Positions 7,258-24,207 of a DNA stretch of 32,000 nucleotides are shown in pieces. The notes below the pieces were generated by a model, which was not told where the DNA came from, did no database searches, and saw only the letters and a program-made list of their open reading frames with translations. Position 1 is the first letter of the stretch, and every line of letters begins with the position of its first letter. Location: the NCBI GenBank assembly GCA_002716355.1, contig PBAU01000009.1, positions 1-32,000 of the forward strand, in the 5' to 3' direction. Origin of the DNA: a bacterium (lineage in GTDB: Bacteria; UBP7; UBA6624). The translations under genes and the position numbers were made by a program.

Positions 7258-8811
7258 GTGGGAACCTGGGTTTCAGTCGATGGTTATGGAAATTCAAAAA
7301 ATAAAAAAGAAATATGGGGTTTAGTTGTTTCTGAGACACAGCCTTTTAAGGCTTGTAAAAAAATATTGAATATTGGGCCAAGAATGAGAAAGAGCAGATA
7401 TGATTTTTTTCAAGATTGTTTAGATTGTTTCATTCCTCCTGGTCCAATTTTAAAAATTTTAATGCCTGGCAGGGCTCCAATTGAGCCCAACACTCTTAAG
7501 GCGTCACAAATTTTAAATGTTTTTCCAAATTTGAAGACTTTAAAAAGGTACGGTTTCCAGGCAACAACAAAATCAAACAAGAGCTTGAAGGCTATTGCAA
7601 ACGGCGAAAAAGTGAATGTTTTTGGGCTTGTAGATTCGATTGGTTTTCCTTTCTCGAATCTTACTAAGATTAATATTTTTGAAGAAGGGCATCCTGATTA
7701 CAGAAGTTTTTATAAAAAAAATCGATATTCATGGTTCAGAGATTCTGCAACCTTAATCAAGAGGTACCAATTTTTTTCTAATTGTGAGATTGAGTGGCAT
7801 GCTAATTTAATTGCTCCTTCAGTTGGTTGTTATTTGGAAAAATTGAAAAATTCTGACTATAGTCAATTTTTAAGTCCGGTTGTTGGGTTTGGGGATGAAG
7901 GCATTACAGGTTTCGGAAAAGAGTTAAAAGCGTTTTTTGAAAAAGGTCAAAAAATTTGTATATTATTGCCTTCAAAAGGTACAGGTAGCCTTTTTTGTAA
8001 ATCTTGTAAGAAGAATATTAGATGTCAGATTTGTGACAAGGTGCTAGTTTTATCTAAGAATGAATTAAAGTGTATTCAATGTAATCAAGAATGGCCGAAA
8101 GTTAAAAAATGTAATGAATGTAATTCATGGCTTATTGCTCTTAGGCAAGGAGTAGATCACTTCAAAGAGTGGTTGCTAAAAAAAGGTTTTTCTGATTTTG
8201 AGATTGAAATTGTTACTTCAAGTCAAAATGAAAAACAGTTAAAAGATTCTTTGGCTAGATTCAAAAAAGGCTTGTCAAAGGTTTTATTGACTACTAATTT
8301 TGAAATTGCAAGAGAGAGTCATGGTCAAAAAGTTTTATGGATTCCTTATTTGAAATATTTTTTTATTGATGATGATTTTCGTTCTTATGAAAATGGTTGG
8401 TGGAGAATGAATGCTTTGAATAGTTTTTCCAGCAAGAACGATATTCGTTTGTTATTTGGTTTTTCTGGTGAAAGAATTCCACCTGTAGATTGTTTTTTGC
8501 AACGTAGTTTTTCTGATTTCTACAGGCAAGAAATAGAAATAAGGAAGCAGTTCGACTATCCTCCTTTTGGCGAAATTTTAATGATTATTAGCAATCGAAA
8601 AATATCAAATTTTATTTATAAAGGTGAAAACATAGATGATATTGCAAGTGATTTGCGTTACCTAAGAGCGTTTGATGGCAAGGGTAAAGAATCTACACAT
8701 TACGCTTATGTGTTTCAAGCTGCAAAAATCAATCAAGATTTTAAAAAGTTTATAAAAAATTTTGTTTTGGAAAATGAAAATATTAGAATTTATTATGAGC
8801 AAAAATTATGA
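7258..8811 (+). CDS. priA: PriA-like primosomal protein N' (517 aa), lacking recognisable helicase ATPase motifs
   Basis: The Cys-rich region is PriA-like: 'CKSCKKNIRCQICDKVLVLSKNELKCIQCNQEWPKVKKCNECNS' (4 x CxxC). 'YPPF' lies near the C-terminus. The N-terminal 'GTWVSVDGYG...IWGLVV' resembles the 3'-DNA-binding domain. GAAGGAGAG RBS lies before the GTG start at 7258. The gene sits in the position priA-def-fmt. Confidence 0.7.
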   Translation: MGTWVSVDGYGNSKNKKEIWGLVVSETQPFKACKKILNIGPRMRKSRYDFFQDCLDCFIPPGPILKILMPGRAPIEPNTLKASQILNVFPNLKTLKRYGFQATTKSNKSLKAIANGEKVNVFGLVDSIGFPFSNLTKINIFEEGHPDYRSFYKKNRYSWFRDSATLIKRYQFFSNCEIEWHANLIAPSVGCYLEKLKNSDYSQFLSPVVGFGDEGITGFGKELKAFFEKGQKICILLPSKGTGSLFCKSCKKNIRCQICDKVLVLSKNELKCIQCNQEWPKVKKCNECNSWLIALRQGVDHFKEWLLKKGFSDFEIEIVTSSQNEKQLKDSLARFKKGLSKVLLTTNFEIARESHGQKVLWIPYLKYFFIDDDFRSYENGWWRMNALNSFSSKNDIRLLFGFSGERIPPVDCFLQRSFSDFYRQEIEIRKQFDYPPFGEILMIISNRKISNFIYKGENIDDIASDLRYLRAFDGKGKESTHYAYVFQAAKINQDFKKFIKNFVLENENIRIYYEQKL

Positions 8812-9337: not shown

Positions 9338-10180
9338 GTGCAGGTTTTGAAGAGTTTGGATATTGATCCTGATTGGATACTAACTAAACCAGATTCAAAA
9401 AGCGGTAGAGGTTTAAAGGTGAATAGTAACCCTGTTATGGATTATGCCATAAGTCAAAATTATAAATACTATACCTCTGTGAAAAAAGTTACAAATGTCG
9501 ATTTATTGTTAGTTGTTTCTTACGGTAATATCATCCCTGATCAAATGTTGGATTATAAATTTGGATGTTTAAATCTCCATCCTTCTTTTCTTCCAAGGTA
9601 TAGAGGTGCAACACCTATACAGAGAGCAATCATGTCAGGGGACAAGAAAGTCGGTGTTTCATGGATCAAATTGACAAGTAATCTTGATGCTGGGCCTATA
9701 TTGTGTCAAGCTGAAGTTTTAGTTGATTATCAAGATAAAAATGAAAATTATGATTCTGTAAAAACCAAAATTGCTAAATCAGGTAGTGTTTTAATCAACA
9801 AGCATTTAAATGAATATGTTAATTCAGAATTAAAATTAAAAGAGCAATCTGGAAAGATAACTTGGGCTAATCGAATCACAAAAGAGGAAAGGGTGGTTGA
9901 TTTAAAAAAAAATGCAAAGCAATGTAATAATTTAATCAAAGCTTTAGACCCTTATCCAGGCGCTAGGTGCAGGTTTGAGCATGAATGGGTTACATTTAAA
10001 AAAAGTTCTTTCTCTATGGTCCAAGATATCAACCCTGGTGAAGTTGCGCTAGAGGGAGATTCATTAGTTGTAGGAACTTCAGAAGGTGTTTTATTGGTTG
10101 ATGTTATCACCCCCCAAGGAAAAAGACCCATGTCGGGAAAGGATTTTTTAAATAGTAGGCCCAATGCAAAATTTAGCTGA
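9338..10180 (+). CDS. fmt: Methionyl-tRNA formyltransferase. The conserved N-terminus appears to be encoded upstream of this first canonical start; see the finding at 9296-9340.
   Basis: 'KPDSKSGRGLKV', 'VVSYGNIIP' and 'LNLHPSFLPRYRGATPIQRAI' are Fmt motifs, and the gene follows def. The in-frame upstream codons read 'EIFKIGFAGSDNLA', which resembles the usual N-terminus. Confidence 0.85.
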   Translation: MQVLKSLDIDPDWILTKPDSKSGRGLKVNSNPVMDYAISQNYKYYTSVKKVTNVDLLLVVSYGNIIPDQMLDYKFGCLNLHPSFLPRYRGATPIQRAIMSGDKKVGVSWIKLTSNLDAGPILCQAEVLVDYQDKNENYDSVKTKIAKSGSVLINKHLNEYVNSELKLKEQSGKITWANRITKEERVVDLKKNAKQCNNLIKALDPYPGARCRFEHEWVTFKKSSFSMVQDINPGEVALEGDSLVVGTSEGVLLVDVITPQGKRPMSGKDFLNSRPNAKFS

Positions 10181-11903
10181 AGTTAAGATAATAAAAGAGC
10201 TCTTTAGGGAACATCAATTTAGATTTTATAAAGGTTTGCTTGCTGGTAAAAGGGTTTTCGTTTGGGCTGTAAGGAGCCCTGATTTTTCTTGGAGGTCTGC
10301 GGAAAAGAGTTTTCGCGAACTTTTAGATAAAAGCATTCCTAATATATTAACATTAAGACATTTTGCTTCTTACAGGGGAGAATATAGGTTTGTTATAGAT
10401 GGCATAAGTGAATTTAAAACTTTAAAATCATGGATTAATTCAAAGCCTTCTTATTCTGAAAAATTAAAAATTTGCTCTTCTGTCCTTCGTTCGTTAATGG
10501 GTCTTCACAGTCAGGGTTTTACTCATTGTTGGATTAATGAAGATTCATTTATTGTCGATTCCGAAGGCAATGCACGCATGATTGATTTTCCAATTAAGAA
10601 TATGTATTATTCTTCAGTTTTAAAAAAAGATCAAATAAAAAATGATAGCTTATTTGGTTTGCCTCCAGGAGACAAAATTGGACAAAAGATATTTGACACA
10701 AAAAATATTGCACTTTTAATTATAAGAATTTTGACTGGATCCGTCCCTCCTTTAATTGGCGGAAAATTTTTGCTTCCAAGGAGTTTGAATCGTGATTTTT
10801 CTGGTTCCTTGAAGAGAATATTAAATGAAAATAGTGAGGATGTTTTGCAAAGCATTCCTGTTCTTATTGGCAGGATTGAAATGATGAACGAAGAAGAAGA
10901 CTCTTTGAAAAAAGGAAGTTTGTTTAATTATTTTTCTATTTTTAGCCGTAAGTATTTAGAACCTTTTTCTCGTATATTGTTGACTATAGCAAGCATATGG
11001 GCTTCTTTTGAGATTCTTTATTTACTCGGTTTCAGTCAGATTGATTCAAGGATTCCAAATGTAATTGGTCAAACTGAATCAATTGGTTTTTCAAAATTAA
11101 AATCAAAAGGATTTGATGTTAATGTAGTTGGTTTTGAGGATAAAAGTAATTTTGATAAAGGTTTAATTGCGCGCACAGACCCAACAGTGGGATCAAGTTT
11201 AAAAAAGGGTCAATTGGTTAATGTTTGGATAAGTTCAGGTTATTTTGAAAATATCATTCCAGATTTTATTGATTTCAATTTCAATGATTATGTTTCTGAG
11301 TTGATTAAGAGCAATATATGGCCATCAAGAATTAAAAGCATTCAAAGCAGTCAGAATTTAGATTGGGAAATAGCATCTTTGGATCCAGCTCCTGGATCGA
11401 AATTAAAACAAGGTGATGACATTGTTTTGAACATTTATTTTCTAGAAGATACTAGCTTGTTTAAATTTCCAGATTTTAAAAATTTAAATATAAGTAATTC
11501 TTTGCAGCTGCTTAAGGGTGAAAATTTTGAAATTAATGGAGCTGTTAGGACAAAGCGTTACCTTGAAGATGATATCAATCAGCAAAAAATAATATATCAA
11601 TTTCCAGAACATCAAAATATGTTGCCCACACTTTTAGATAACGATCTTTTGTTCATCGTCAAAGAGTCTAAAAATTGGAGTTTTGACATGGGTGAATTGC
11701 CCCCTTGGGTCAATGATGGAGGTATTGAAATCGTTGTAAAATATGGTTCTGAAATGGAAATTTGGAATGAGGTGATAACAAGAGGTCTAAAAAAGGTTTC
11801 TTTTCAAGCAAGAATGAATAATATATTATCGGATAACAAAAAACCAGTTTCCATCATTATTAGCCAGGATGGCAAATTGGCTTGGAGCTCTCAATTTGAA
11901 TGA
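10164..11903 (+). CDS. Membrane-anchored PASTA-domain protein with a degenerate (probably inactive) Ser/Thr kinase-like N-terminal domain
   Basis: Kinase-like blocks 'GKRVFVWAVR', 'LHSQGFTHCWINEDSFIV' and 'ARMIDFP'. A TM segment lies at 'ILLTIASIWASFEILYLLGF'. At least two PASTA-like repeats follow: 'IPNVIGQTESIGFSKLKSKGFDVNVVG...GQLVNVWISSG' and 'IPDFIDFNFNDYVSELI...GDDIVLNIY'. Confidence 0.65.
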   Translation: MQNLAEVKIIKELFREHQFRFYKGLLAGKRVFVWAVRSPDFSWRSAEKSFRELLDKSIPNILTLRHFASYRGEYRFVIDGISEFKTLKSWINSKPSYSEKLKICSSVLRSLMGLHSQGFTHCWINEDSFIVDSEGNARMIDFPIKNMYYSSVLKKDQIKNDSLFGLPPGDKIGQKIFDTKNIALLIIRILTGSVPPLIGGKFLLPRSLNRDFSGSLKRILNENSEDVLQSIPVLIGRIEMMNEEEDSLKKGSLFNYFSIFSRKYLEPFSRILLTIASIWASFEILYLLGFSQIDSRIPNVIGQTESIGFSKLKSKGFDVNVVGFEDKSNFDKGLIARTDPTVGSSLKKGQLVNVWISSGYFENIIPDFIDFNFNDYVSELIKSNIWPSRIKSIQSSQNLDWEIASLDPAPGSKLKQGDDIVLNIYFLEDTSLFKFPDFKNLNISNSLQLLKGENFEINGAVRTKRYLEDDINQQKIIYQFPEHQNMLPTLLDNDLLFIVKESKNWSFDMGELPPWVNDGGIEIVVKYGSEMEIWNEVITRGLKKVSFQARMNNILSDNKKPVSIIISQDGKLAWSSQFE

Positions 11904-12550: not shown

Positions 12551-13677
12551 AGAATTTTACTAGTGAATCTGTTACAGAGGGGCATCCCGATAAGCTTGCT
12601 GATAAAATTTCAGATAGTTTTTTAGATTTAACTTTATCTTTGGCAGGTGATAAGAAAGATGTAAAGGCAGCTATTGAAACAATGCTTACGGGAAGCAAGG
12701 TTGTTGTTGCTGGCGAAATTTCTCGTCATCTTGTGGATGATGTCAAAAAACAGTCTGAAAAAATAGTTCATAATGTTTTAAATGAAGTTGGTTACACGAA
12801 AGATTCTTTGCAAAAAAATATTATTGATATTGAGATTGTTGATGAGCTGAAGCCTCAGTCCTCTGAGCTTGCAAGGGCTCATGAGGAAAGTGATGATGGA
12901 AGTGAGCTTTCAGGTGATCAGGGCATGATGCATGGTTTTGCTTGTTTACAAACACCTGTGCTTATGCCTGCTGCTATATCATGGGCGCATGATTTGGCAA
13001 AAAGGTTAACAGAGGTTCGCAAAAATAAAACTTTACCTTATTTAAGGCCTGATGGAAAAAGTCAAGTTACTGTCTCTTATAGAAACAAAAAACCATTTGT
13101 TCATTCAGTTGTCTTAAGCACACAGCACGATGAAAGTGTTTCATTAGGAGATTTAAGAGAAGATCTAAAAGAGAAAGTTGTAGTTGATGTTTTAGGTGAT
13201 TTTTTGACAAATCAAAGTAAATTTTATATACAGACATCTGGAACATGGCATGAAGGTGGTCCTATTGTTGACACCGGATTAACTGGTAGAAAAATAACAG
13301 TAGATACCTATGGGGGGTATATACCAAATGGTGGTGGAGCTTTTAGTGGCAAAGATCCAAGCAAGGTTGATCGTTCAGGTGCTTATTACGCTAGATTTGC
13401 TGCAATTCAAGCTTTGAAGGAATTTAAGAATCAAGGTGTCTCTGAAGTTGAGATTCAAGTAGCGTATGCTATTCATAAACCAACACCTATTTCTGTAGAT
13501 GTGAAAACAGATCGATCTGATTTAGATCCTGAAATAGAGGATTATGTAAAATCTTTGAGATGGGATTTAGCTTACATAAATCAAAAATTAGATTTGTGGA
13601 ATTGTCGATATGAGCCACTATCTTCCTATGGTCATTTCGGTCGAGAAGATTTGAATTTATCTTGGGAAGACTATTGA
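12541..13677 (+). CDS. metK: S-adenosylmethionine synthetase
   Basis: 'FTSESVTEGHPDKLADKISD', 'GDQGMMHGFA' and 'GGGAFSGKDPSKVDRSGAY' are MetK motifs. Confidence 0.95.
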   Translation: MFMKNFTSESVTEGHPDKLADKISDSFLDLTLSLAGDKKDVKAAIETMLTGSKVVVAGEISRHLVDDVKKQSEKIVHNVLNEVGYTKDSLQKNIIDIEIVDELKPQSSELARAHEESDDGSELSGDQGMMHGFACLQTPVLMPAAISWAHDLAKRLTEVRKNKTLPYLRPDGKSQVTVSYRNKKPFVHSVVLSTQHDESVSLGDLREDLKEKVVVDVLGDFLTNQSKFYIQTSGTWHEGGPIVDTGLTGRKITVDTYGGYIPNGGGAFSGKDPSKVDRSGAYYARFAAIQALKEFKNQGVSEVEIQVAYAIHKPTPISVDVKTDRSDLDPEIEDYVKSLRWDLAYINQKLDLWNCRYEPLSSYGHFGREDLNLSWEDY

Positions 13678-14792
13678 GTTCAGTAAGTAAAAAAATTAAT
13701 CTTGATGCTGTTTCTGGTATAGATGTTTTTCCAGAGGTTAAAGAAAGGATACTTTTGTCGCTTGGAAGACAAGCTCCAATAAATACATCCTCTAGACATC
13801 TAGCAGGACAAAATATTTCTGCAGTTTTGGATGGTTGTACTTCAACTGTGCTTCAATCTTTAGGTTCTGGTTTTAAAAATGGAATTTGGACAAGTTCGGC
13901 TACAGAGGCCCATCACCTTATTGCACATTCAATCAATCCCAGAAAGATCATTGTTCCAAGAGGTTCACGTTTAAGCTTAATTAATTCAGCTAAAATTATT
14001 TCCAAAAGATGTAAATGTGAAATTATTCAGCCAAAGTTTAATCCTTTGAATGGTTTTGATTTAGATGTTTTAAAAGATGTAAATGAAAAAGATGTTCTTT
14101 TTATGGATTCTTCTTTGGCTGAGATTGGTTTTGTTTACGACTTGAATTTTTTTAATTCTGTTTTGCAGGAAGCCAAAATTAAAGTTCTTATGGATGTTTC
14201 ATCTTCTTTTGGCTGGAGAGAATTAAAAGATAAACTGTTTTTTTCAGATTGGGTTACTTGTTCTTTTTATAGGTTTGGAGGACCTGCTGGTGTTGGTTTT
14301 TTAGCCTCAAAAATCGATGACATGAAACCTTTGTTTCATGGTGTTGAGCAAGAAGGTTTAAGAGGTGGGAACATTCCTTTAAGCTTGATAGAAGGCGCTG
14401 CTTATTCGATGGAATTCTTTAAAGGGAGATTTTTGAAAGCCACATTATCAGGCTGGAAGGAAACGGTTTGCAAGTTAGCAACCTTTATTGAAAATGAATT
14501 TAAAACTAACCAGTTTAAATTTGACAACCATTTGCCTCATGTTATTTCATCACATGTTAAAAATGTTGATCTTGATGCTTTCAGGATGAACCTTTCTGTT
14601 GAAGGTGTTTTTATTGGCACAGGCCCAGCTTGTGTGTCTGGAGCAGGAAAAAAAAGTCAAATTTTGGAAGATATGAATATTAATGATGGTCAAAATTTAT
14701 TAATTTCTCCTGATCTGAATTTAAAAGATCGAGATCTAGAAAACCTATATGAAAAATTAATCAAAGCTTGGTTTGATGCAAAAATAAAATGA
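13662..14792 (+). CDS. IscS/NifS-like class V aminotransferase-fold protein with the PLP-binding Lys apparently replaced by Arg
   Basis: 'WTSSATEAHH', 'LMDVSSSFG', 'CSFYRFGGPAGVGFL' (compare the canonical 'S..HK..GP.G.G.L'), 'GLRGGNIP' and the Cys loop 'GTGPACVSG'. The start is TTG at 13662 or 13674. Confidence 0.65.
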   Translation: MGRLLSSVSKKINLDAVSGIDVFPEVKERILLSLGRQAPINTSSRHLAGQNISAVLDGCTSTVLQSLGSGFKNGIWTSSATEAHHLIAHSINPRKIIVPRGSRLSLINSAKIISKRCKCEIIQPKFNPLNGFDLDVLKDVNEKDVLFMDSSLAEIGFVYDLNFFNSVLQEAKIKVLMDVSSSFGWRELKDKLFFSDWVTCSFYRFGGPAGVGFLASKIDDMKPLFHGVEQEGLRGGNIPLSLIEGAAYSMEFFKGRFLKATLSGWKETVCKLATFIENEFKTNQFKFDNHLPHVISSHVKNVDLDAFRMNLSVEGVFIGTGPACVSGAGKKSQILEDMNINDGQNLLISPDLNLKDRDLENLYEKLIKAWFDAKIK

Positions 14793-15040
14793 CAATTCCA
14801 ATACACATACACAAATTGGACACAAGAGGGTTTCTTTGTCCTATACCTATTATTAAATTAAAAAAACTTGTTGATGGTTTAGATATAGAAGATGGCGGAA
14901 AACAGATAATTAAACTTTATTCTGATGATCCTGTTTCGGATGTTGATGTACGAGCATGGTGCTTGGATAATGGCCAAGAGCTTGGAGGTTTGGAAAAAAA
15001 GGGAAAGGATTTTATTTTTAAGATAATAGTGAGAATTTGA
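14789..15040 (+). CDS. TusA/SirA-family sulfur-carrier protein
   Basis: 'LDTRGFLCPIPIIKLKKL' matches the TusA active-site motif (D.rG..CP.P), and 'YSDDPVSDVDVRAWC' is also TusA-like. The 83-aa ORF overlaps the IscS-like stop by 4 nt. Confidence 0.75.
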   Translation: MTIPIHIHKLDTRGFLCPIPIIKLKKLVDGLDIEDGGKQIIKLYSDDPVSDVDVRAWCLDNGQELGGLEKKGKDFIFKIIVRI

Positions 15041-15120
15041 TGAAACTTTCCTTCTTTTAGATTAGTATAGTACTTAACACTTCGGTCAAATGAGGGCTAG
15101 GCCAAGTGTTTTACCTAGTT

Positions 15121-16131
15121 TTACCTGGGTGGGGAGAGCCTTCGGCTCTCCCTTTTTTTATTATTGATTTTCAAAACCGAAATGATTCCTATAGGAAAAC
15201 CAACCCAAAGTGTTGTCAGTCTAGTTAGAAAGGTTCCACTGTTTGCAACTTCTTCTTCAAAGCCTGACAGCATTAGAAGGTTTGTTAATGTTAATTCAGT
15301 TGCACCAAGGCCTCCAGGTATGAATGACAATGCGCCAGCTAGCATTGAGGTTGAGTAAAACCTAGTGAGAGCTGTTATTTTTTCAATTAATGAAACATCT
15401 GTGTTGCTATTTTGAAATATTGAAAAATTGGGAAATATTGCTTCCAAGCATAAAAAACATGTTATCCCTTCTAAAACCCATGCAAACCAGCCCCACAATA
15501 AAAGCTGAGGGATATTTTTTTTTAACAGCTTTAGTGTTTCTAGAAAGGTCTTAACGAATTCCTTTCTTTCTTTTTTAGGTACTGACTTGGAAGCAATTTT
15601 GTTTACTAGTGATTTGGCAATAATGTATAAAAGCAGCATTGTAATCACTCCAAAAATCCATGATATTAAAATTAGTTCTATTGAGTTTTGATAAAGATAT
15701 TGTTTATTTTTTAAAACCATGTAAATAAAAATAGGAAAGCACAACATTGTTACACCAGCAACATCACTTGTTCTTTCTATCCAAATGATAGGCAAACTTT
15801 TTCTTGCAGGTATTTTTGTTAAATCGTATAAATGCAGGCTTTTTGCAATTTCACCAATTTTTCCTGGTGTAAATGTGTAAAAAAAACCTGAAAAAAAAGA
15901 TAAAAATGATTTTGAAATTTTGATATTTTCCCCACTTTTATTTAAAAGCCAATGCCACCTTAAGGCTCTTAAGATATAGTTCAGAAAAGCAAAAAAAATA
16001 CCAAATAAAATAAGGTTTATATTGAAGGTTTCAATTTGTTGAATGTTTTTTAAATCTGAATTAAAAATCCAAACACCATATAGTGTTATAGCTATTGCAG
16101 TACATTTCCAGACTAGTTTAATTTTATTCAT
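15121..16131 (-). CDS. Multi-pass membrane protein, UPF0104 / lysylphosphatidylglycerol-synthase-TM ('flippase-like') family, tentative
   Basis: Multiple hydrophobic segments and an 'LRALRWHWLL' motif typical of that family. I prefer ATG 16131 ('MNKIKLVW'), which overlaps the upstream stop by 8 nt, over the track start at 16212, which overlaps by 89 nt. Confidence 0.55.
   Translation of the reverse strand: MNKIKLVWKCTAIAITLYGVWIFNSDLKNIQQIETFNINLILFGIFFAFLNYILRALRWHWLLNKSGENIKISKSFLSFFSGFFYTFTPGKIGEIAKSLHLYDLTKIPARKSLPIIWIERTSDVAGVTMLCFPIFIYMVLKNKQYLYQNSIELILISWIFGVITMLLLYIIAKSLVNKIASKSVPKKERKEFVKTFLETLKLLKKNIPQLLLWGWFAWVLEGITCFLCLEAIFPNFSIFQNSNTDVSLIEKITALTRFYSTSMLAGALSFIPGGLGATELTLTNLLMLSGFEEEVANSGTFLTRLTTLWVGFPIGIISVLKINNKKRESRRLSPPR
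15131..15160 (+). terminator. Rho-independent terminator after the tusA-like gene
   Basis: GC-rich hairpin 'gggagagcc-ttc-ggctctccc' at 15132-15152, followed by T7 at 15153-15159. It lies inside the last codons of the convergent membrane-protein gene, whose tail 'ESRRLSPPR' is encoded by the hairpin. Confidence 0.8.
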
Positions 16132-16900
16132 ATATTGCGTATGCAATCCTTGAACCTTGACCATGAGACCATCTTGTTGGCTCTGGTAGCTTGGGATGTT
16201 TTTCGTATTCAACCTTTATAACAACTTTTCTCGATATTTTTAGAGATCTTTTTATTGTGTTTTCGGTTGGCCAGCTTTTTAATGCAACTTCGCGCAAAGG
16301 CATCATATCGTCAGATTTGAATTGGGGTTTTACAAACATTGGAGAAAAACAAACAGCATCAAAATTATCTTTTGAATTTTTAATATATGTTTCATTGTCA
16401 ATGCATTTTGTTTTTATGTTCAAGGCAGCCTTTCTTATGAATTTAGGGTATTCTTTATTTTTATTAGTTTTTTTTAGCCCCTCAGAAGTTATAAGATGTA
16501 TAAATTTATCTTTCTCAAGGCCAATCACATTCGCTCCACATGATGCAAGCACCAAGGCATCATGAGCCATCCCAAGGTTAGCATCAAGTATTTTCATTCC
16601 TTTTTTTGGCTTTACGCTCCTGTAAAGGTGATCAGGAAGGTTGTTTTTCAGTGAGCCAATTCTAATTTTAGACAAGCCTGGATGCCAAAACCATATTTTT
16701 TGATTTGGAGTGTATGCTTTAAGACCCTGTTTTTTGTTTACTATCAATATTGGTGAATTGTTGTTTTGGGTTGAAATTTTTTTTAATGTTTTTTCTCTTC
16801 TCTCTTCATAAATGCAGTTTAAATTTTTCGCAATATTTTTTGCCTTGGATATTTCTTCTTCTTGCGGTTTTGTCTTGGTGGTTATGATCCATTTTTCCAT
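16124..16900 (-). CDS. Class I SAM-dependent methyltransferase, RsmJ-like (16S rRNA m2G methyltransferase family)
   Basis: 'ILDANLGMAHDALVLASCGANVIGLEK' and 'DAVCFSPMF' resemble the RsmJ pattern (DATAGLGRDAFVLAS.G..V...ER ... DPMFP). Confidence 0.6.
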   Translation of the reverse strand: MEKWIITTKTKPQEEEISKAKNIAKNLNCIYEERREKTLKKISTQNNNSPILIVNKKQGLKAYTPNQKIWFWHPGLSKIRIGSLKNNLPDHLYRSVKPKKGMKILDANLGMAHDALVLASCGANVIGLEKDKFIHLITSEGLKKTNKNKEYPKFIRKAALNIKTKCIDNETYIKNSKDNFDAVCFSPMFVKPQFKSDDMMPLREVALKSWPTENTIKRSLKISRKVVIKVEYEKHPKLPEPTRWSHGQGSRIAYAIYE

Positions 16901-16906
16901 TTTTAT

Positions 16907-17350
16907 TTATTTTGTTTTTTTGATAAGTCGAATATTATTGATTTCAATTTCTTTTGTTAGTGATTTTGTCATATCGTAAATGTTCAATAATGCAATCATT
17001 ACTGCATTTATTGCTTCTATCTCAACCCCTGTTTCAGATTTTGTTATAGTTTTTGAAGTGACTATCATGGAGTTTTCCTTCCATTTGATTTCAATTTTTA
17101 CATTTTTTAAATTTATTTGATGACAAAGGAGAACTAGATCCGATGTTTTTTTTGCAGCATTTATTCCTCCCAATTTTGCAACAGTAAGGATGTTGCCTTT
17201 CTTGCTCTTCGGGTCTTTTTTAATTTTTTGAGCAATTTTTTCAGGAAATGTTATTGAGCCTTCAGCAGTTGCTGTTCTTGTTGTGGTTTGTTTTTTTGAA
17301 ACATCAACCATGCTAACACCCCCTTCATCATCTAGATGTGTTAAATTCAT
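16907..17350 (-). CDS. moaC: Cyclic pyranopterin monophosphate synthase MoaC
   Basis: 'LTHLDDEGGVSMVDVSKK', 'KGNILTVAKLGGINAAKKTSDLVLLCH' and 'TGVEIEAINAVMIALLNIYDM' are MoaC motifs. I prefer ATG 17350, which forms a TAATG overlap with the moaE stop and has an AGAGGAGA RBS. The track start is 17371. Confidence 0.9.
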   Translation of the reverse strand: MNLTHLDDEGGVSMVDVSKKQTTTRTATAEGSITFPEKIAQKIKKDPKSKKGNILTVAKLGGINAAKKTSDLVLLCHQINLKNVKIEIKWKENSMIVTSKTITKSETGVEIEAINAVMIALLNIYDMTKSLTKEIEINNIRLIKKTK

Positions 17351-17718
17351 TAATTTATCTCCTCTTTCCATACAGGTAATCTTTTTTTACATTCTTCAAG
17401 AACCCATTCTGCTGCCTCAAAAGCTTCTTTTCTGTGTGGAGCTAATATGCCAATTTGTATAGATCTTTCTTTTGGTTTTATTTTTCCAGAACCATGTTTA
17501 ATTATGATTTCTTTAATGTCCCATTTTCCTTCTGCTTGTTTTGCAATTTTAGACCCTTCACTTTCAAGCATTTCTTCATACACTTCATAATTTATAAATC
17601 GAACTTTTTTGTTGTTGTTGGGACTTCTGACAGTTCCTTCAAAAAGAACCCAAGCCCCAGAATTAGCCCTGAAAGGTCTTTCCAGTTTTTTCAATTTACC
17701 TTTTTGGAATATTTTCAT
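17350..17718 (-). CDS. moaE: Molybdopterin synthase catalytic subunit MoaE
   Basis: 'GAWVLFEGTVR', 'INYEVYEEM', 'IGILAPHRKEAFEAAEWVLEECKKRLPVWKEE' match MoaE. The gene overlaps moaD by 4 nt. Confidence 0.85.
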   Translation of the reverse strand: MKIFQKGKLKKLERPFRANSGAWVLFEGTVRSPNNNKKVRFINYEVYEEMLESEGSKIAKQAEGKWDIKEIIIKHGSGKIKPKERSIQIGILAPHRKEAFEAAEWVLEECKKRLPVWKEEIN

Positions 17719-17936
17719 CCTCCAGACATAGGTGGCAAAAATGCAATTTCAGAATTTCTCGGAACTTTTTGGCTCCAGTCGCAAAATTCAAAATTCAAAG
17801 CAGGTTTGATCTTCTTTTTTTCTAATTTGATCTCTTGGTCCCATATTTTTTTTAAAGTTATATTTTCTTTCCAATCTATTTTTTTTTCTTTCCAGCCTAG
17901 CTCTTTTGCCAAGTGTCCAAAAAGCAGTATCTTCAT
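17715..17936 (-). CDS. moaD: Molybdopterin synthase sulfur-carrier subunit MoaD
   Basis: 73 aa ending in 'PPMSGG' (ubiquitin-like C-terminal Gly-Gly). It sits between moaA and moaE. Confidence 0.8.
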   Translation of the reverse strand: MKILLFGHLAKELGWKEKKIDWKENITLKKIWDQEIKLEKKKIKPALNFEFCDWSQKVPRNSEIAFLPPMSGG

Positions 17937-18896
17937 TCAGCCTCCAATTTGAGACAAGGACATCCAAGTCTCCTCTTTTGTCTTCAAAGGATTATAAGTT
18001 CTTTTGTTTTTTATGGCTCTTTCGATCATTTCTTGAAGGTTTCCAATATTTTTATTTCTCAATTCATGTTTTAAATCGATACCTTTATTTTGATAGAGGC
18101 ATACAAATAATTTTCCATCACATGATATCCTTAACCTGGTACATTTGTGACAACCAGGGTCAGAAGCGGCTGCAATTAATCCAATTTCCTTTTTTGATTT
18201 ATTTATTTTTCTGTAAACCGCAGGGCTTAATTTCGATTCTCTAGTGTTGTTCTCCTTGGGTAAAAGCTCAGTTAACTTTTTTTCAATATCTTTTGCGGAA
18301 ATGAATTCATTTTTATGATAATCTGAAGTGGATGAAAATGACATCAATTCTATAAACCGCAAGCTTACCTCATGCTTTTTAGCAAAATCTATAAATTTAG
18401 GAATTTCATTGAAGTTTGTGTTTGTGACAACTGTGTTAATTTTTACATTACTGAAACCCAGTTTCTGTGCTTTTTTTAAAGATTCAAGTACCTTTTGAAG
18501 GTTCCCATTTCCGGTTGTTTTTTTAAATTTACTTGAATCAAGAGAATCTATACTGATGTTAATGTTGTCTATTCCTGAAATAATTAGGTCATTTATTTTT
18601 TCTGAAAGGTAGTGTCCATTAGTAGTTATTGATATTTCTGGTTTTGGATCAAGTGTTGAAAGCATTTGAACTAATTTGTTCAATCCCTTTCTCAACAGAG
18701 GCTCTCCCCCTGTAAGTCTTATTTTTTTTAAGCCAATAAGGGCATTAAAAATTTTTGCCAATTCAAAGTATTCTTCTATTTTCAGAAATTTATTATTTTC
18801 AATTGAGTTGATGTTCCCATTAGGTAAACAGTATTTACATCTGTAATTGCATTTATCAGTTAGCGATATGCGAAGATATTCTTGTTTAACATCCAT
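17937..18896 (-). CDS. moaA: GTP 3',8-cyclase MoaA (radical SAM)
   Basis: 'ISLTDKCNYRCKYCLP' (CxxxCxxC), 'IRLTGGEPLL', a C-terminal Cys cluster 'CHKCTRLRISCDG' and the terminal 'IGG'. Confidence 0.92.
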   Translation of the reverse strand: MDVKQEYLRISLTDKCNYRCKYCLPNGNINSIENNKFLKIEEYFELAKIFNALIGLKKIRLTGGEPLLRKGLNKLVQMLSTLDPKPEISITTNGHYLSEKINDLIISGIDNINISIDSLDSSKFKKTTGNGNLQKVLESLKKAQKLGFSNVKINTVVTNTNFNEIPKFIDFAKKHEVSLRFIELMSFSSTSDYHKNEFISAKDIEKKLTELLPKENNTRESKLSPAVYRKINKSKKEIGLIAAASDPGCHKCTRLRISCDGKLFVCLYQNKGIDLKHELRNKNIGNLQEMIERAIKNKRTYNPLKTKEETWMSLSQIGG

Positions 18897-19320
18897 TTTT
18901 TATTATTTTTTTAATTTTTAGAAATATTTTTTCAGGGCTATCTTGATTGTCCCAACCATAGGTTTTAATTTTATGTTCTATTGTCTTAATTGATAATTTT
19001 AGTAATTTATCTTTTTTGGGAAAGATAACTAATTTTGCATCTTTTTCATTTTTTAAAACATTATTAAGTTCCATTGTTATTTTTGGGAAAAGGGTTAAAA
19101 AATCAAATACATTTTCTTGATTATGTATGTATTTAATCTTTAAGTAATGTTCATTGTCTTGATTAATTATTTTTCTTTCAGTCCAGTTTTGATTCGTTCC
19201 GGATATCCATAAAACATTTATATCTTGTTGTTTTGCAAGTTTCTGCGCTATATTCCAATATTTTTTTTTATGGTTTTTTCCATTTGAGGAAATGCTTCTT
19301 GATAATGCGATTATTTTCAT
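18886..19320 (-). CDS. Hypothetical 144-aa protein
   Basis: The ORF overlaps the moaA start by 11 nt and begins 2 nt after the NUDIX stop, so it appears to be translated within the operon. I recognised no motif. Confidence 0.45.
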   Translation of the reverse strand: MKIIALSRSISSNGKNHKKKYWNIAQKLAKQQDINVLWISGTNQNWTERKIINQDNEHYLKIKYIHNQENVFDFLTLFPKITMELNNVLKNEKDAKLVIFPKKDKLLKLSIKTIEHKIKTYGWDNQDSPEKIFLKIKKIIKNGC

Positions 19321-19321
19321 C

Positions 19322-19813
19322 TTATCTTCTTTTGGACAGATATTCTTGAATGAATTTATTATGACAATGAAAAGGTATCATTGGAAGGTTTTCAAATTCA
19401 AAAAAGCTTAAATCCTGCGCATCGTCTCCGGCTTTTATTTTAGAAAAATTGGATACTTTCATTTCAACAGCAATTGAGAGTATGTCTCCAAAAATTGTTC
19501 CATAATGAGAGCACGTTCCAATCATCCCAATAACTTCTCCATCAAGGTTAGTTTCCTCTTTGAGTTCACGTCTTGCTGCCTCTTCAAGTGTTTCCCCCAA
19601 CTCCATAAAGCCACCAGGAAGTCCCCATTCTCCTATTGCCGGTTCAAACGCCCTTTTGGCCAAAAGAATTTTATTTTTTTTTAGGCATATTATCGTTGCT
19701 GTTGGTTTTGGATTTTGATAATGAATTGTTATGCATTTTTCACAATGGTATCTGTTTCTGCCCTCAATGAAGCTGAATGTATTTTTGTTGCCACATATTG
19801 AACAGTATTTCAT
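19322..19813 (-). CDS. NUDIX hydrolase with an N-terminal zinc ribbon (NudC-like architecture)
   Basis: 'CSICGN...HCEKC' forms the zinc ribbon. The Nudix box is 'GLPGGFMELGETLEEAARRELKEETNL'. Confidence 0.85.
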   Translation of the reverse strand: MKYCSICGNKNTFSFIEGRNRYHCEKCITIHYQNPKPTATIICLKKNKILLAKRAFEPAIGEWGLPGGFMELGETLEEAARRELKEETNLDGEVIGMIGTCSHYGTIFGDILSIAVEMKVSNFSKIKAGDDAQDLSFFEFENLPMIPFHCHNKFIQEYLSKRR

Positions 19814-19880
19814 ATTTAAAAATAATATCTAGCTCAAAATCTCACTATTTTTTGTATATTGTATTTTTGGCAATTTTTAT

Positions 19881-20831
19881 TCAATCTACTGAAAGGCCTA
19901 ATTTTTTGAATATTCCCTTATAGGAAATTTTCCTTTCAGATGAATTGATCCTGTTTGCACTCATGCCTAATGATATGTTAATTAAGTCAGTTGAATACAT
20001 TACGGGTATTGGATCACTATTTATTCCAAGCTTTTTCATTATCTCTTCTTGGTATTTATCTATCGCCTCAAGACCTCTTGGATCAAGTGTTGCTATGACC
20101 TCAGCATTGCTTTCATGCGCATCCTCAATTATTGGAGTTATTATTTTTAATGCATATTTTTTGGAAATATTATTAAATTCATTTGATCCATGCTTTTTTA
20201 ATTCTATTGTTAAATAGCCACCAAGCCACCTATTGAAAGAGCCCCATTTGACACATTTTCCTCCTGATTTTTCAATTAGAGATGAAATCACAAAAGGATT
20301 ATCTGGATGATCTGATTGAACTTTTGACATTGGTCTCATGAGTTCAGGAGGCGTATGTACAGCTATCCTCAAAGGGTCAAATTGTTCTTCTCTGTCGTTT
20401 CCCAGCTTTCTTATAATCAATCTGTCAAATTTTTTCCCACCTGTTTGAGCTTTAATTAAATGGAGAATGTTAACTGCTTTGAATCTTCCAGCATAATCGA
20501 TCTCAAGAGATTTGACCATTTTGTCTTTTATCTTTTTGTATTGAGGTTCTTCAAGCCTGCTTATAGCTTTTCTGTAAATTTGATAAAGTAATGGGTCAGC
20601 TATAAAAAGTTTATCGTTTCTAGTTGTTTTTTCAGCAATGCATAGATTCCTTAAGGTGTATGCTAAAAATTTTGTTTCATCCGTTAAATAAGGCCCTTCT
20701 TCACCCGTATCGCTCCAATTTTGGATTGTTTCATCATCAATTCCTAATTGTCTTAAGCAAACAGAGATGCTACTTTCAAAATTTTTATATACTGAAGACA
20801 GCATGCCGGATTTCATTATTGTTACCTTCAC
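19881..20831 (-). CDS. HdrB-like protein (two CCG-type domains) with every canonical cysteine position substituted
   Basis: By-eye collinearity with the HdrB/CCG-domain architecture: 'ISVCLRQLGID', 'LRNLCIAE', 'IAVHTPPELMRP', 'DHPDNPFVISSLIEKSGGK', 'RWLGGYL' (at the position of '.CCG.GG'), 'AEVIATLDPRGLEAID' (at the position of 'A..IV..CP.C..Q.D') and 'IPVMYSTDLINISLGM'. It overlaps the upstream partner by 4 nt (GTGA). Confidence 0.6.
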   Translation of the reverse strand: MKVTIMKSGMLSSVYKNFESSISVCLRQLGIDDETIQNWSDTGEEGPYLTDETKFLAYTLRNLCIAEKTTRNDKLFIADPLLYQIYRKAISRLEEPQYKKIKDKMVKSLEIDYAGRFKAVNILHLIKAQTGGKKFDRLIIRKLGNDREEQFDPLRIAVHTPPELMRPMSKVQSDHPDNPFVISSLIEKSGGKCVKWGSFNRWLGGYLTIELKKHGSNEFNNISKKYALKIITPIIEDAHESNAEVIATLDPRGLEAIDKYQEEIMKKLGINSDPIPVMYSTDLINISLGMSANRINSSERKISYKGIFKKLGLSVD

Positions 20832-21388
20832 TCTTCTCCCTCACTCCCTTCCTTTAAGGATTGGTTGAATGTAAAGAATCCAGGTAAATCCTGGATCTCT
20901 CTTAATGGCATTCTTTCTTCTTCCTCTTCTTCATCCCCACGGAGAAGTTTCTGGAAAAAACCTTTCTTTTTCTCCTCTTTTTTTTCTTCTTTTTCAAATC
21001 CAATGTCAGATGGTTGGATCCTGCCCCAATTTTCCAAAGGGGATATGAAGGAATTGTAGAAATCAAAAACAGGATTGTCCCTTGGGGCCATATTTCTTTT
21101 TATGGATTCAAATCTGAGCCATTCCAAAACTTTTTCAATATCTATATCTTCAGGAGCTATGTCTGTAGCGCAAAAAGCATCTTGCATTAACCATATGTCT
21201 ATTGAGGAAAGTATTGATTCGTCATTGGTCAATATGCCATTTATTATTCTTGATAGGCCATTTTTGCATATGTTTCTAGAAGGCATAGATCCATCTCCAG
21301 CCCACCAATGTTTTAATGGCATTAAGTTAATGCCCGTATCTTGCTTCAGTTTTTCATGAAGATGAGCAATTTTTGAAGAATCTTCCAT
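20828..21388 (-). CDS. HdrC-like 2x[4Fe-4S]-ferredoxin-fold protein with all eight Cys ligands substituted, plus a charged low-complexity C-terminal tail
   Basis: 'LKHWWAGDGSMP' sits where 'CxxCxxCxxxCP' is expected. 'SRIINGILTN..ILSS.DIW' is the inter-motif helix. 'LMQDAFCATDIAPEDIDIEKVLEWLR' sits where 'CxxCxxCxxxCP..idi..v...lR' is expected. The tail reads 'EKEEKKEEKKKGFFQKLLRGDEEEEEER'. Confidence 0.6.
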   Translation of the reverse strand: MEDSSKIAHLHEKLKQDTGINLMPLKHWWAGDGSMPSRNICKNGLSRIINGILTNDESILSSIDIWLMQDAFCATDIAPEDIDIEKVLEWLRFESIKRNMAPRDNPVFDFYNSFISPLENWGRIQPSDIGFEKEEKKEEKKKGFFQKLLRGDEEEEEERMPLREIQDLPGFFTFNQSLKEGSEGEE

Positions 21389-21444
21389 CTTTTGAATTCT
21401 ATTGTTTTTTAAGAATATTATTAACTAAATTAGAATATTCGTTA

Positions 21445-22611
21445 ATGAAGTTTACTCGTGCAATTGAAAGTTTGAAGCCGGAAGGTGCTTTTGTTGTCCT
21501 CGCAAAGGCGAAAGATTTAGAGTCGCAAGGTAAAGAAATAATCCATTTGGAAATTGGTCAGCCTGATTTTCCAACACCTGCGCATATAGTTTCAAGTGCT
21601 AAAAAATCTTTGGATAAATCTTGGACACATGGATACACTCCATCCTTAGGCGTTATTGAATTGAGAAAAGCTATTGCAAAAGATCTTTCAGAAAGAAGAG
21701 GTGTTTCTTTTGGGCATGATGAAATAATTGTTTGCCCTGGAGCAAAACCAGCGTTAATGGCCACTGTTTTAGCATTAGTTGAACCGGGCACTAAATTGCT
21801 TTATCCAGATCCTGGTTTTCCTTCTTACCATTCTCTTTCTTCTTTTGTTAATGCGCAAGGTGTCGGTATTCCTCTTTTGGAAAAAAATGATTTTTCTTTT
21901 GATTTAAACTTCCTGGAAAAAGAGATTAAAGGTGCTTCTTTATTGATATTAAACTCTCCTGCAAATCCTACTGGTGGTATTTTGAAAAAGGAAGATCTTA
22001 AAATCATAGCTAATCTTTGTATTGAAAATAATGTTGCTGTTTTGAGCGATGAGGTTTATTCAAGAATGTGTTATGACGAAGATCATGTGTCTATAGTTAC
22101 GATTCCAGGAATGAAAGAAAGAACTGTTCTTATAGATGGCTTTTCAAAAACTTATGCTATGACTGGTTGGAGAGCTGGGTATGCTGCAGCTGATAAATCT
22201 TTAATTGACAAGTTGGGTTTGTTCATGAATAACAATACTTCTTGTGTTAACGGAATGACCCAGGCAGCTTGCATAAGCGCTATTGAAGAGAGTCAAGACC
22301 CTAGTGAGATGATGATTCAAGAATTCAAAGAAAGAAGAACACTTATAGTAGATGGTCTCAATAAGGTTCCGGGATTTTCATGTAGAAATCCTGGTGGTGC
22401 TTTTTATGCTTTTCCGAATATTAAAAATACCAATATTAGTGGCAAGGCTATAAGTGATCATATGCTTAATAAAGGTGTTGCTCTTCTTCCTGGGGAAGAT
22501 TTTGGAAAATATGGAGAAGGTTACATACGTCTTTCGTATGCTAATTCAAGAGAGAACATATCCAAAGCGATAGATATTTTGATTGAAGAAGTACCAAAGA
22601 TATCTAGATAA
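21445..22611 (+). CDS. Pyridoxal-phosphate-dependent class I/II aminotransferase (aspartate aminotransferase-like)
   Basis: 'LEIGQPDFPTP', 'LNSPANPTGG', 'VLSDEVYSRM', 'GFSKTYAMTGWRAGY' (PLP Lys present) and 'IRLSYA'. I prefer ATG 21445 ('MKFTRAIESL') over the track's TTG 21373, which overlaps the divergent gene. Confidence 0.88.
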   Translation: MKFTRAIESLKPEGAFVVLAKAKDLESQGKEIIHLEIGQPDFPTPAHIVSSAKKSLDKSWTHGYTPSLGVIELRKAIAKDLSERRGVSFGHDEIIVCPGAKPALMATVLALVEPGTKLLYPDPGFPSYHSLSSFVNAQGVGIPLLEKNDFSFDLNFLEKEIKGASLLILNSPANPTGGILKKEDLKIIANLCIENNVAVLSDEVYSRMCYDEDHVSIVTIPGMKERTVLIDGFSKTYAMTGWRAGYAAADKSLIDKLGLFMNNNTSCVNGMTQAACISAIEESQDPSEMMIQEFKERRTLIVDGLNKVPGFSCRNPGGAFYAFPNIKNTNISGKAISDHMLNKGVALLPGEDFGKYGEGYIRLSYANSRENISKAIDILIEEVPKISR

Positions 22612-23520: not shown

Positions 23521-24207
23521 ATGAATTTTTTAATCATTCTTAGTTTTGTTTTTTTTGAACCGATTACAGTTCAAGGAGAGCCCATTACGTTTAATAATCT
23601 TGATGATAGGACACAGATTGATTTTCCCCAAGGTGGTGAAATTTCAGGTCCAGGTTTTTCAATTAATGCAAATTATCTTTTTGGTGAGTATTTTCTAGAT
23701 AAATCATTTTCAATGAGGGGTTCGAAAGGTGTTTTTTTTGAAGGTGATTCCATAAAGGTGAATGGTTATGAATTGATGTTCAAGAATGATTTGGTTAGTA
23801 TATCAGAATCAGTAAATGGCTATTTTCAAGATTTTGAATTTGAGTCAAACTTGATAATCATGGATATTCAAAAAAATCATTTTATCCTTAGGGGAAAAGA
23901 AGAAAAACCTTTAATTTCCAATAACTTTTTTTCAATTAGTGCAAATTTTATTAAACTTGACATGCATGATAAATTTTTAAATGCTGAAGAGGATGTTCAT
24001 TTTGATTTTGACAAAAATTCAATGAATTTCAATGGCACAGCTTCATCTTTTCGATATAGTTCTGATTCAGGTTTCTTAAATTTTTATGATGTATTTTTAC
24101 ACAATAATAAAGGGTACGATCTTAAGGCTGAATATTTAGAATTAAATGAAGTCAAAAAAGAATTAAATTTAAGTGGTAATTTTGATATTAGGTTGAAAGA
24201 TGATTAG
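23521..24207 (+). CDS. Secreted protein, possibly OstA/LptA/LptC-like beta-jellyroll (tentative)
   Basis: Hydrophobic N-terminus 'MNFLIILSFVFF'. Repeated segments of the form 'a.l.ld....l.l.GN..i' are present ('ISANFIKLDMHDKFLNAEEDVHFDF', 'LKAEYLELNEVKKELNLSGNFDIRL'). This is only a weak by-eye resemblance. Confidence 0.35.
   Translation: MNFLIILSFVFFEPITVQGEPITFNNLDDRTQIDFPQGGEISGPGFSINANYLFGEYFLDKSFSMRGSKGVFFEGDSIKVNGYELMFKNDLVSISESVNGYFQDFEFESNLIIMDIQKNHFILRGKEEKPLISNNFFSISANFIKLDMHDKFLNAEEDVHFDFDKNSMNFNGTASSFRYSSDSGFLNFYDVFLHNNKGYDLKAEYLELNEVKKELNLSGNFDIRLKDD

Follow-up and report, generated by a model that had tools for sequence, protein, structure and literature searches.

The locus analysed here raises the question whether the two subunits of a heterodisulfide reductase (Hdr) module can lose every cysteine that holds their iron-sulfur (Fe-S) clusters and still be kept as a gene pair. 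In Hdr, electrons pass through two cubane clusters in HdrC to two non-cubane [4Fe-4S] clusters in HdrB, where the disulfide is bound and cleaved; the non-cubane clusters of HdrB do disulfide chemistry in methanogenesis, sulfur oxidation and several dehydrogenases, and HdrC is a dedicated electron wire. The window, a stretch of 32,000 nucleotides (GenBank assembly GCA_002716355.1, contig PBAU01000009.1, positions 1 to 32,000; GTDB lineage Bacteria, UBP7, UBA6624), contains two overlapping genes which an earlier note, made from the DNA letters without database searches, had read as an HdrC-like and an HdrB-like gene with all Fe-S ligand cysteines (8 + 10) replaced. Judged by its sequence, the pair is a lineage-specific, iron-sulfur-free derivative of bacterial HdrC/HdrB that originated from one cysteine-bearing HdrCB subfamily. 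The features of the pair are as follows.

20828..21388, minus strand: HdrC-like gene, ATG start, 186 amino acids, without Fe-S ligands.
19881..20831, minus strand: HdrB-like gene, GTG start, 316 amino acids, without ligands for the non-cubane [4Fe-4S] clusters.
20828..20842, minus strand: translational coupling junction, with a Shine-Dalgarno-like run and a stop/start overlap.
21281..21316, minus strand: first former CxxCxxCxxxCP motif, HdrC-like residues 25-36 (LKHWWAGDGSMP), ligand positions L25, W28, G31 and M35.
21152..21187, minus strand: second former CxxCxxCxxxCP motif, HdrC-like residues 68-79 (MQDAFCATDIAP), ligand positions M68, A71, A74 and A78.
20574..20825, minus strand: N-terminal pseudo-CCG domain, HdrB-like residues ~3-86, ligand columns G9, D41, T42, D79 and L82.
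20046..20375, minus strand: C-terminal pseudo-CCG domain, HdrB-like residues ~153-262, ligand columns P162, W202, L203, D250 and G253.

The positions of the two open reading frames (ORFs), their C-then-B order and the 4-nt GTGA overlap are exactly as the earlier note had given them. The HdrC-like stop codon TGA (20828-20830) overlaps the HdrB-like start codon GTG (20829-20831), and a GAGGGAG Shine-Dalgarno-like run at 20836-20842, still inside the 3' end of the HdrC-like gene, precedes the GTG with a spacing of 4 nt. Because two relatives have ATG instead of GTG at the same codon, and because the protein, which begins MKVT..., lines up at this end with the N-terminal beta strand of cysteine-bearing HdrB, the GTG start can be regarded as sound. 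The C-then-B order is found in the window and in all cysteine-less lineages, and the 4-nt overlap likewise occurs in all of them, including the related loci L006, L012, L016 and L018. The pair region has a G+C content of ~0.35, the same as the remaining window, which is an ordinary piece of bacterial chromosome carrying dnaK, grpE, gmk, rpoZ, coaBC, def, fmt, rpe, metK, moaACDE, an xerC-like gene, miaA and others; an Rfam scan of the whole window gave no match.

That the two proteins belong with HdrC and HdrB had been proposed from a comparison by eye. The NCBIfam model for HdrB, TIGR03288, aligned with HdrB-like residues 12-311 (model positions 11-290 of 290; E 6.4e-17), with a score of 61.7 bits that lies below the family cut-off of 345 bits, and a profile built from four HdrB-like sequences matched HdrB chains of the PDB at E 1e-5 to 1e-4. 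An AlphaFold2 (AF2) model of the HdrB-like protein had a mean predicted local distance difference test score (pLDDT) of 91.3 and a predicted template modelling (TM) score (pTM) of 0.90, and when this model was searched with Foldseek the best six PDB matches were all HdrB (E ~1e-16, TM 0.77-0.86), with E 1.8e-16 and TM 0.80/0.86 against 5odc_B. After the HdrB chains, the fold matches were LutA, EtfD and a Helicobacter pylori protein (PDB 3KWL), the entry of which is described only as an uncharacterised protein. For the HdrC-like protein, TIGR03290 gave E 5.5e-4 and 20 bits against a cut-off of 160 bits, the HdrC-like profile matched the PDB HdrC chain 7bkb_C at E 0.008, and the AF2 model was moderate (pLDDT 74.8), its best six PDB fold matches being all HdrC chains at E 0.04-0.1. 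The decisive test for this subunit was a profile-profile comparison with hhalign, in which seven cysteine-less sequences were set against five cysteine-bearing HdrC that lay outside the query profile, and which returned a probability of 98.9 % and E 2.7e-17 over 165 columns. Both proteins are genuine homologues of HdrC and HdrB, beyond chance. The relationship was recovered with NCBIfam, PDB profiles and hhalign, and not with the Pfam CCG and Fer4 families that the note had also named for this purpose, as neither window protein had a CCG or Fer4 match in Pfam at E up to 10.

The loss of the ligands is complete, as had been claimed: no cysteine occupies any of the 18 ligand columns in any cysteine-less sequence. 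Cysteine was found in 0 of the 10 HdrB ligand columns across nine HdrB-like sequences (the window protein and eight relatives) and in 0 of the 8 HdrC ligand columns across seven HdrC-like sequences, the cysteine-less sequences compared sharing 42-93 % identity with the window proteins. Of the ligands, 9-10 of 10 in HdrB and all 8 in HdrC are present in the nearest cysteine-bearing relatives. The ligand register was identical by three independent alignment methods, and every motif pairing proposed in the note was reproduced by the hidden Markov model (HMM) alignments; at the second HdrC-like motif, the alignment to PDB HdrC reads LWLCTTCYSCTDRCP. The limits of the N-terminal pseudo-CCG domain were taken from the alignment, the ligand table and the range of the Pfam CCG match on the sister protein P0010. 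Pfam CCG recognised all 7 cysteine-bearing but none of the 9 cysteine-less HdrB-type proteins, and the Fer4 models of Pfam, which recognised cysteine-bearing HdrC, did not match the cysteine-less HdrC-like proteins.

Few cysteines are left at all, only 1-4 in total per cysteine-less protein. In the window these are C25, C64 and C193 of the HdrB-like and C41 and C73 of the HdrC-like protein, and the ligand table confirmed that all stand at non-ligand columns, as the note had stated. C25, C193 and C41 are invariant in all cysteine-less sequences, and their columns are non-cysteine in all cysteine-bearing relatives. Both CPxC motifs of the HdrB-like protein have been changed to DPxx (or EPxx); since this change is pseudo-symmetric in the two domains, random drift is argued against. 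Gly, Pro, Trp, Leu, Ala and Met are unable to ligate iron, and we know of no Fe-S cluster without any cysteine ligand. With no cluster ligands remaining, it follows from established Hdr biochemistry that the pair is incapable of Hdr-type electron relay and disulfide reduction.

The ratios of nonsynonymous to synonymous substitution rates (dN/dS) were estimated with the Nei-Gojobori method on codon alignments of the window and six related loci, with the following ranges.

HdrB-like: dN/dS 0.04-0.10.
HdrC-like: dN/dS 0.02-0.10.
moaA: dN/dS 0.06-0.14.
NUDIX gene: dN/dS 0.05-0.15.

Between the window and L001, dN was 0.033 for the HdrB-like gene and 0.067 for moaA, and between the window and L006 it was 0.47 and 0.68, respectively. 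Conservation was examined in six divergent HdrB-like sequences, in which 50 % of the positions no more than 3 residues from a former ligand are invariant, compared to 32 % elsewhere (permutation p = 0.013). The former cluster loops of the HdrB-like protein carry the clade-invariant motifs NWS..G..G, DP..YQ, HTPPE..RP, RW.GG and TL[DE]PR.L...D..Q, and the former HdrC-like motifs, now L..WW..D..M.SR and WLMQD...A.D..P, are equally conserved; in the C-terminal tail of the HdrC-like protein the clade motifs are WGR[IL]..SD[IV]G and R.PLREIQD.PGFF. Given dN/dS values of 0.02-0.10 and the conserved former cluster loops, the two genes are not decaying pseudogenes. The view of the earlier note that a conserved, repurposed module fits better than decay is thus strengthened, as intact ORFs and strong purifying selection were seen in every relative found, and the cysteine-less state was conserved in the orthologues with dN/dS well below 1. 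Being enzyme homologues that lack the residues essential for the chemistry and are under purifying selection, the two proteins would qualify as pseudoenzymes in the operational sense.

A word-indexed protein search returned only close relatives (78-92 % identity) and one ordinary HdrB. An exhaustive HMM search of 1.84 billion representatives gave 64 matches at E up to 0.001, the best of which, P0009, is 50 % identical and cysteine-less too; the nearest cysteine-bearing protein was P0010 (E 4.7e-21), followed by ordinary HdrB and SdhE-like proteins. The search with the HdrC-like profile added the cysteine-less members P0113, P0115, P0116 and P0117 and a cysteine-bearing group consisting of P0114 and P0118-P0121. 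Scans of GTDB genomes and Joint Genome Institute (JGI) metagenomes yielded further loci only from lineages already seen (five in the metagenome scan), and intact ORFs were found in 14 loci from at least six lineages. The cysteine-less group and the cysteine-bearing group that includes the HdrC partner of P0010 have in common the HdrC tail motifs WGRLE..D.G and R.PL..I.D.P..F as well as an LRN..I.EK.TRN block in HdrB, and on account of these shared features the cysteine-bearing group can be regarded as the sister lineage. It consists of conserved, so far uncharacterised HdrC-HdrB-ProkJAB trios (P0114/P0010, P0119 and P0121) and holds the nearest relatives of both window subunits.

L009 4613..6731, divergent from dnaK-grpE: sister HdrC-HdrB-ProkJAB trio.
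L010 10001..12110, divergent from dnaK-grpE: sister HdrC-HdrB-ProkJAB trio.
L014 2115..4104, divergent from dnaK-grpE: sister HdrC-HdrB-ProkJAB trio.

As in the window, the HdrC and HdrB genes of the sister clade are adjacent or overlapping. Unlike the window pair, the sister proteins keep 8 of 8 HdrC and 9 of 10 HdrB ligands and are recognised by Pfam Fer4 and CCG. One ligand of their HdrB is already missing, since the second CCG domain reads CNGG instead of CCG. Their context differs as well, with dnaK-grpE(-dnaJ-merR) on one strand and HdrC-HdrB-ProkJAB on the other in three lineages. This clade, cysteine-bearing and already short of one ligand, could be used for reconstructing how the clusters were lost.

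We are highly confident that the pair is a functional, cofactor-free derivative of HdrCB. As the best explanation overall we favour, by somewhat more than even chances, a cofactor-free, non-redox heterodimer acting as a ligand-binding or accessory subunit; any specific accessory or ligand-binding mechanism is put forward tentatively and is open to considerable doubt. In such a heterodimer, the HdrC-like and HdrB-like proteins would still associate as HdrB and HdrC do, as suggested by the gene coupling and the homology to HdrBC. The HdrC-like protein would serve only as a cluster-less structural clamp, its cluster cavities being filled by Trp, Met and Leu, and the inter-domain cleft of the HdrB-like protein, the former site of clusters and substrate, may have been kept to bind a small molecule or a partner protein. 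The cleft, where conservation in the HdrB-like protein is highest, is predicted to be lined by clade-invariant Asp, Glu, His, Arg and Trp, with an acidic N-terminal half (D41, E44/E45 and D79) and a C-terminal half in which W202 and L203 would stand together with H159, E163, R201, D250 and R252.

The genes around the pair bear on what its ancestral job may have been, and in the window and its relatives they are arranged as follows.

21445..22611, plus strand: class I/II aminotransferase (Pfam E 1.3e-60; NCBIfam matches of the aspartate aminotransferase type).
19322-19813, minus strand: NUDIX gene, downstream of the HdrB-like gene and co-directional with it.
18886-19320, minus strand: conserved ORF of 144 amino acids between the NUDIX gene and moaA.
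17937-18896, minus strand: moaA.
17715-17936, minus strand: moaD.
17350-17718, minus strand: moaE.
16907-17371, minus strand: moaC.
Window and L001, after the pair: NUDIX, 144-aa ORF and moaA-D-E-C, with GlcD and GlcF both absent at the locus.
Pelagic low-GC clade L002-L005, after the pair: NUDIX replacing the MBL gene, GlcD kept, GlcF absent.
High-GC L006 and L008, after the pair: MBL-fold hydrolase, GlcD-type flavin adenine dinucleotide (FAD) dehydrogenase, GlcF-type Fe-S/CCG protein (cysteines present), 141-aa protein of no known type and moaA-D-E-C.
High-GC L012 and L016, after the pair: MBL-fold hydrolase and GlcD-type FAD dehydrogenase, in L012 also a partial ORF; both contigs end nearby.

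The aminotransferase gene is divergent from the pair in every cysteine-less lineage with upstream sequence, the short contig L018 ending before it. Downstream, the order from NUDIX to moaC (16907..19813) is as in L001-L006, with MBL, GlcD and GlcF genes inserted in the less reduced relatives. The neighbourhood of NUDIX and moa genes that the note had wished to see conserved is thus partly so: the moa order is kept in L001-L006, but high-GC relatives have an MBL gene in the place of NUDIX. In L012 and L016 the MBL and GlcD genes are joined on by further 4-nt overlaps, as they are in L006 and L008 if an alternative GTG of the MBL gene is used. Ancestrally, the pair was probably an accessory subunit of the enzymes encoded downstream of it in these less reduced relatives, an MBL-fold hydrolase and a GlcD-type FAD 2-hydroxyacid dehydrogenase, and in L006 and L008 the ancestral set of partners may also have included the GlcF-type Fe-S/CCG protein. 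Since the pair persists in the window genome with no MBL, GlcD or GlcF gene at this locus, it must also have a role that is independent of the genes of the locus.

Several points weigh against the non-redox accessory heterodimer. The AF2 model of the HdrB-like protein indicates that the fold is compatible and is not an independent proof of it, because the alignment from which it was made consisted mostly of cysteine-bearing HdrB, and the HdrC-like model is of only moderate quality, with fold matches no better than E 0.04. The association of the two subunits is deduced from the coupling of their genes and from homology to HdrBC, and the link to GlcD, GlcF and MBL is one of gene order, which is broken in the window genome and in L001. 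The genomes concerned are compact, and their long co-directional arrays may carry little functional meaning; the lining of the cleft by conserved polar residues is a prediction and not a measurement on coordinates.

In one alternative, which we consider quite unlikely, the ligand replacements and the residues next to them would form the non-redox active site of a new cofactor-free enzyme in the inter-domain cleft. Candidates are Asp79-Pro80 and Asp250-Pro251, a pseudo-symmetric pair where the CPxC motifs had been, and D41, E45, H159, E163, R201 and R252; such a site could be of a two-carboxylate acid/base or a divalent-metal type and act on a hydroxy acid or an amino acid. Across the clade the candidate residues are either invariant or exchanged for similar ones, conservation of the HdrB-like protein peaks around the former ligands, the neighbouring genes handle amino and 2-hydroxy acids (aminotransferase and GlcD-type dehydrogenase), and Asp/Glu and hydantoin racemases appeared as weak Foldseek relatives (probability 0.9-0.99, TM ~0.3). 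However, the racemase matches are weak and hold at the level of the overall fold only, half of the replacements (G, L, P, W, L, G) resemble the filling of a cavity, the geometry of the site is predicted from sequence, and we know of no precedent. A conversion of the HdrB fold, more broadly, to a cofactor-free catalytic or specific ligand-binding module, with a constellation of carboxylate, His, Arg and Trp residues that includes the Asp-Pro pair and with HdrC as the clamp, is unlikely; if true, it would be a new protein family and function made from one of the most iron-rich catalytic modules known. Another alternative is a purely structural relic, a scaffold or docking piece of a larger complex without ligand binding of its own, for example an iron-sparing stand-in for a subunit of the GlcF/HdrD type or a piece resembling a membrane anchor like SdhE. 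The former cluster positions of the HdrC-like protein are filled with Trp, Met, Leu and Ala, residues typically found in a filled core, GlcF corresponds to HdrC and HdrB fused into one protein, L002-L005 retain GlcD and the pair without GlcF at the locus, and there is a weak full-length similarity to the SdhE anchor model. We nevertheless judge such a relic to be improbable, as the window genome has neither GlcD nor GlcF at the locus and conservation is concentrated in the former active-site loops instead of being spread over the surface. Moreover, because the high-GC L006 and L008 carry the cysteine-less pair beside a cysteine-bearing GlcF, the pair is neither a replacement for GlcF nor specific to iron-poor surface water.

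Whether the pair is cofactor-free at all would be put in doubt by a new metal or cluster site at the subunit interface, built from C25 and C193 of the HdrB-like and C41 of the HdrC-like protein, perhaps together with His or Asp. The invariance of these three cysteines in the cysteine-less sequences, at columns that are non-cysteine in the cysteine-bearing relatives, speaks for such a site; yet the model puts C25 close to the C-terminus of helix 1 and C193 in the other domain, on a beta strand, both probably away from the cleft to judge from the Rossmann-like topology, conserved buried cysteines are common, and three thiols cannot replace four clusters, so that we give this explanation very little weight. 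For decaying pseudogenes or an alignment artefact behind the loss of cysteines, the absence of Pfam matches can be cited and nothing else; the intact ORFs in 14 loci, the low dN/dS, the agreement of three alignment methods on the register and the total of 1-4 cysteines per protein refute it, leaving it a negligible probability.

An iron-sparing adaptation of surface-ocean genomes was also considered as the origin of the cysteine loss and was rejected, as the high-GC relatives are cysteine-less too.

To our knowledge, all characterised CCG proteins are redox proteins, and the pair, as proposed here, would work unlike any of them. It has the same two-subunit architecture and C-then-B order as the HdrB and HdrC of methanogens (PDB 5ODC, 7BKB and 8RVU; TIGR03288 and TIGR03290); the HdrB-like protein is collinear with HdrB from end to end, with the same fold predicted for it (TM 0.80-0.86), and the HdrC-like protein is collinear through both ferredoxin motifs. 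In contrast to them, the pair keeps 0 of 10 non-cubane and 0 of 8 cubane cluster ligands, is only ~19 % identical, scores far below the family cut-offs and has no HdrA or MvhD gene within ~10 kb. The window pair is therefore best placed as a divergent offshoot of the HdrCB family that lacks clusters, rather than as an HdrBC, as fold and homology agree with that family whereas the ligands are absent and the cut-offs of HdrB, HdrC, CCG and Fer4 are not reached. GlcF, HdrD, SdhE and LutA-type proteins share the CCG-domain fold family with the HdrB-like protein, LutA and EtfD being among its fold matches. GlcF, HdrD and LutA-type proteins keep their cysteine motifs and Fe-S clusters, unlike the window pair, which is moreover split into two genes and phylogenetically closer to HdrCB than to GlcF; in L006 and L008 a GlcF-type gene is in the same operon as the pair. 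The SdhE anchor model (NF042965) gave a match at E 5e-8, with 32.7 bits against a cut-off of 500 bits, and no sdhA or sdhB gene was found in the window or the related loci, so that the pair was not assigned to the type E succinate:quinone reductases. SdhE, too, retains its cysteine motifs and Fe-S clusters (PMC2754724).

The nearest precedent that we found is sHdrB3 of the type II sulfur-oxidising Hdr-like systems, which is described as binding only one non-cubane cluster (bioRxiv 10.1101/2023.12.18.572138) and thus exemplifies a partial loss of cluster binding in an HdrB-type protein. While sHdrB3 is a fused HdrC2-HdrB2 with one active cluster in a redox complex with sHdrA, both subunits of the window pair have lost all their ligands, and shdr genes are absent from the vicinity. 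Neither the literature searches nor the Pfam and NCBIfam libraries yielded a description of a fully cysteine-less HdrB/HdrC pair or of a CCG pseudoenzyme, in line with the earlier note, which knew of no such module.

Together the two subunits have lost all four clusters (18 ligands) and are nevertheless still coupled and evolving more slowly than a core biosynthetic enzyme, which makes the pair a clean natural test of the uses to which an HdrBC scaffold devoid of iron can be put and should surprise Fe-S enzymologists. The family is missed by current domain libraries, and the NCBI-deposited copies that we found are annotated as hypothetical protein. Its distribution is limited to a small lineage of uncultured bacteria, and the function proposed for it is a putative one. 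If the cleft binds a ligand or catalyses a reaction, the CCG fold would be credited with a new function, and if the pair is only a scaffold, it would still be a useful example of a pair of pseudoenzymes in abundant, streamlined marine bacteria.

The claim that the pair heads a long operon is plausible, although unproven. Ten co-directional genes follow one another with overlaps or short gaps, and there is no terminator-like site after the HdrB-like gene, but in the promoter and terminator scan of 14900-21700 promoter-like matches occurred at chance level and hence gave no proof of an operon. In the ORFs of the window, as in those of the flanks examined (~10 kb) at the related loci, there was no hdrA, mvhD, sdhAB, shdr, LbpA or DsrE partner. 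The hydrolase encoded after the HdrB-like gene has been swapped, being of the MBL fold in L006 (10975..11688), L012 (8700..9464) and L016 (2179..2934) and NUDIX in the low-GC clade; the window NUDIX protein (19322..19813, minus strand) is NudC-like, with a Zn ribbon. The ORF of 141-144 amino acids (window 18886..19320, minus strand; L006 14040..14465) lies directly upstream of moaA wherever the contig of a lineage extends far enough, so that it separates the moa genes from the GlcD/GlcF or NUDIX genes. It overlaps the start of moaA in the window and in L001-L005 and ends 7 nt before moaA in L006, and it had no match in Pfam, NCBIfam or the PDB. Farther away in the window, the ORFs of 517 and 228 amino acids (7258..8811 and 23521..24207, both plus strand) had no match in Pfam, and a PASTA-domain protein (10164..11903, plus strand) showed a weak partial match to protein kinases (E 2.8e-4), below the Pfam cut-off.

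A role of the pair in thiol or persulfide handling, which the note had raised as a speculation from the nearby TusA/IscS-like and moa genes, found no evidence in our analysis, and the TusA/IscS-like pair is on the other strand, ~5 kb away. TusA is stated to have a role in molybdenum cofactor synthesis (bioRxiv 10.1101/2023.12.18.572138), by which its position beside moa genes is already explicable. The coupling of the HdrC-like and HdrB-like genes to MBL and GlcD genes (with GlcF in L006 and L008) in the less reduced relatives is a more informative context. The IscS-like ORF (13662..14792, plus strand) is followed by the TusA-like ORF (14789..15040, plus strand), and its protein matches cysteine desulfurases (PDB, E 5e-12). 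In all relatives, from 83 % to 30 % identity, the HK motif with the Schiff-base lysine for pyridoxal phosphate (PLP) has become YR (CSFYRFGGP) or, in some, FR, and the loop with the active-site cysteine is retained as GTGPAC[VI]SG or GSESACQSG. Paired with TusA, the IscS-like protein looks like a second conserved homologue without a key catalytic residue in the same neighbourhood.

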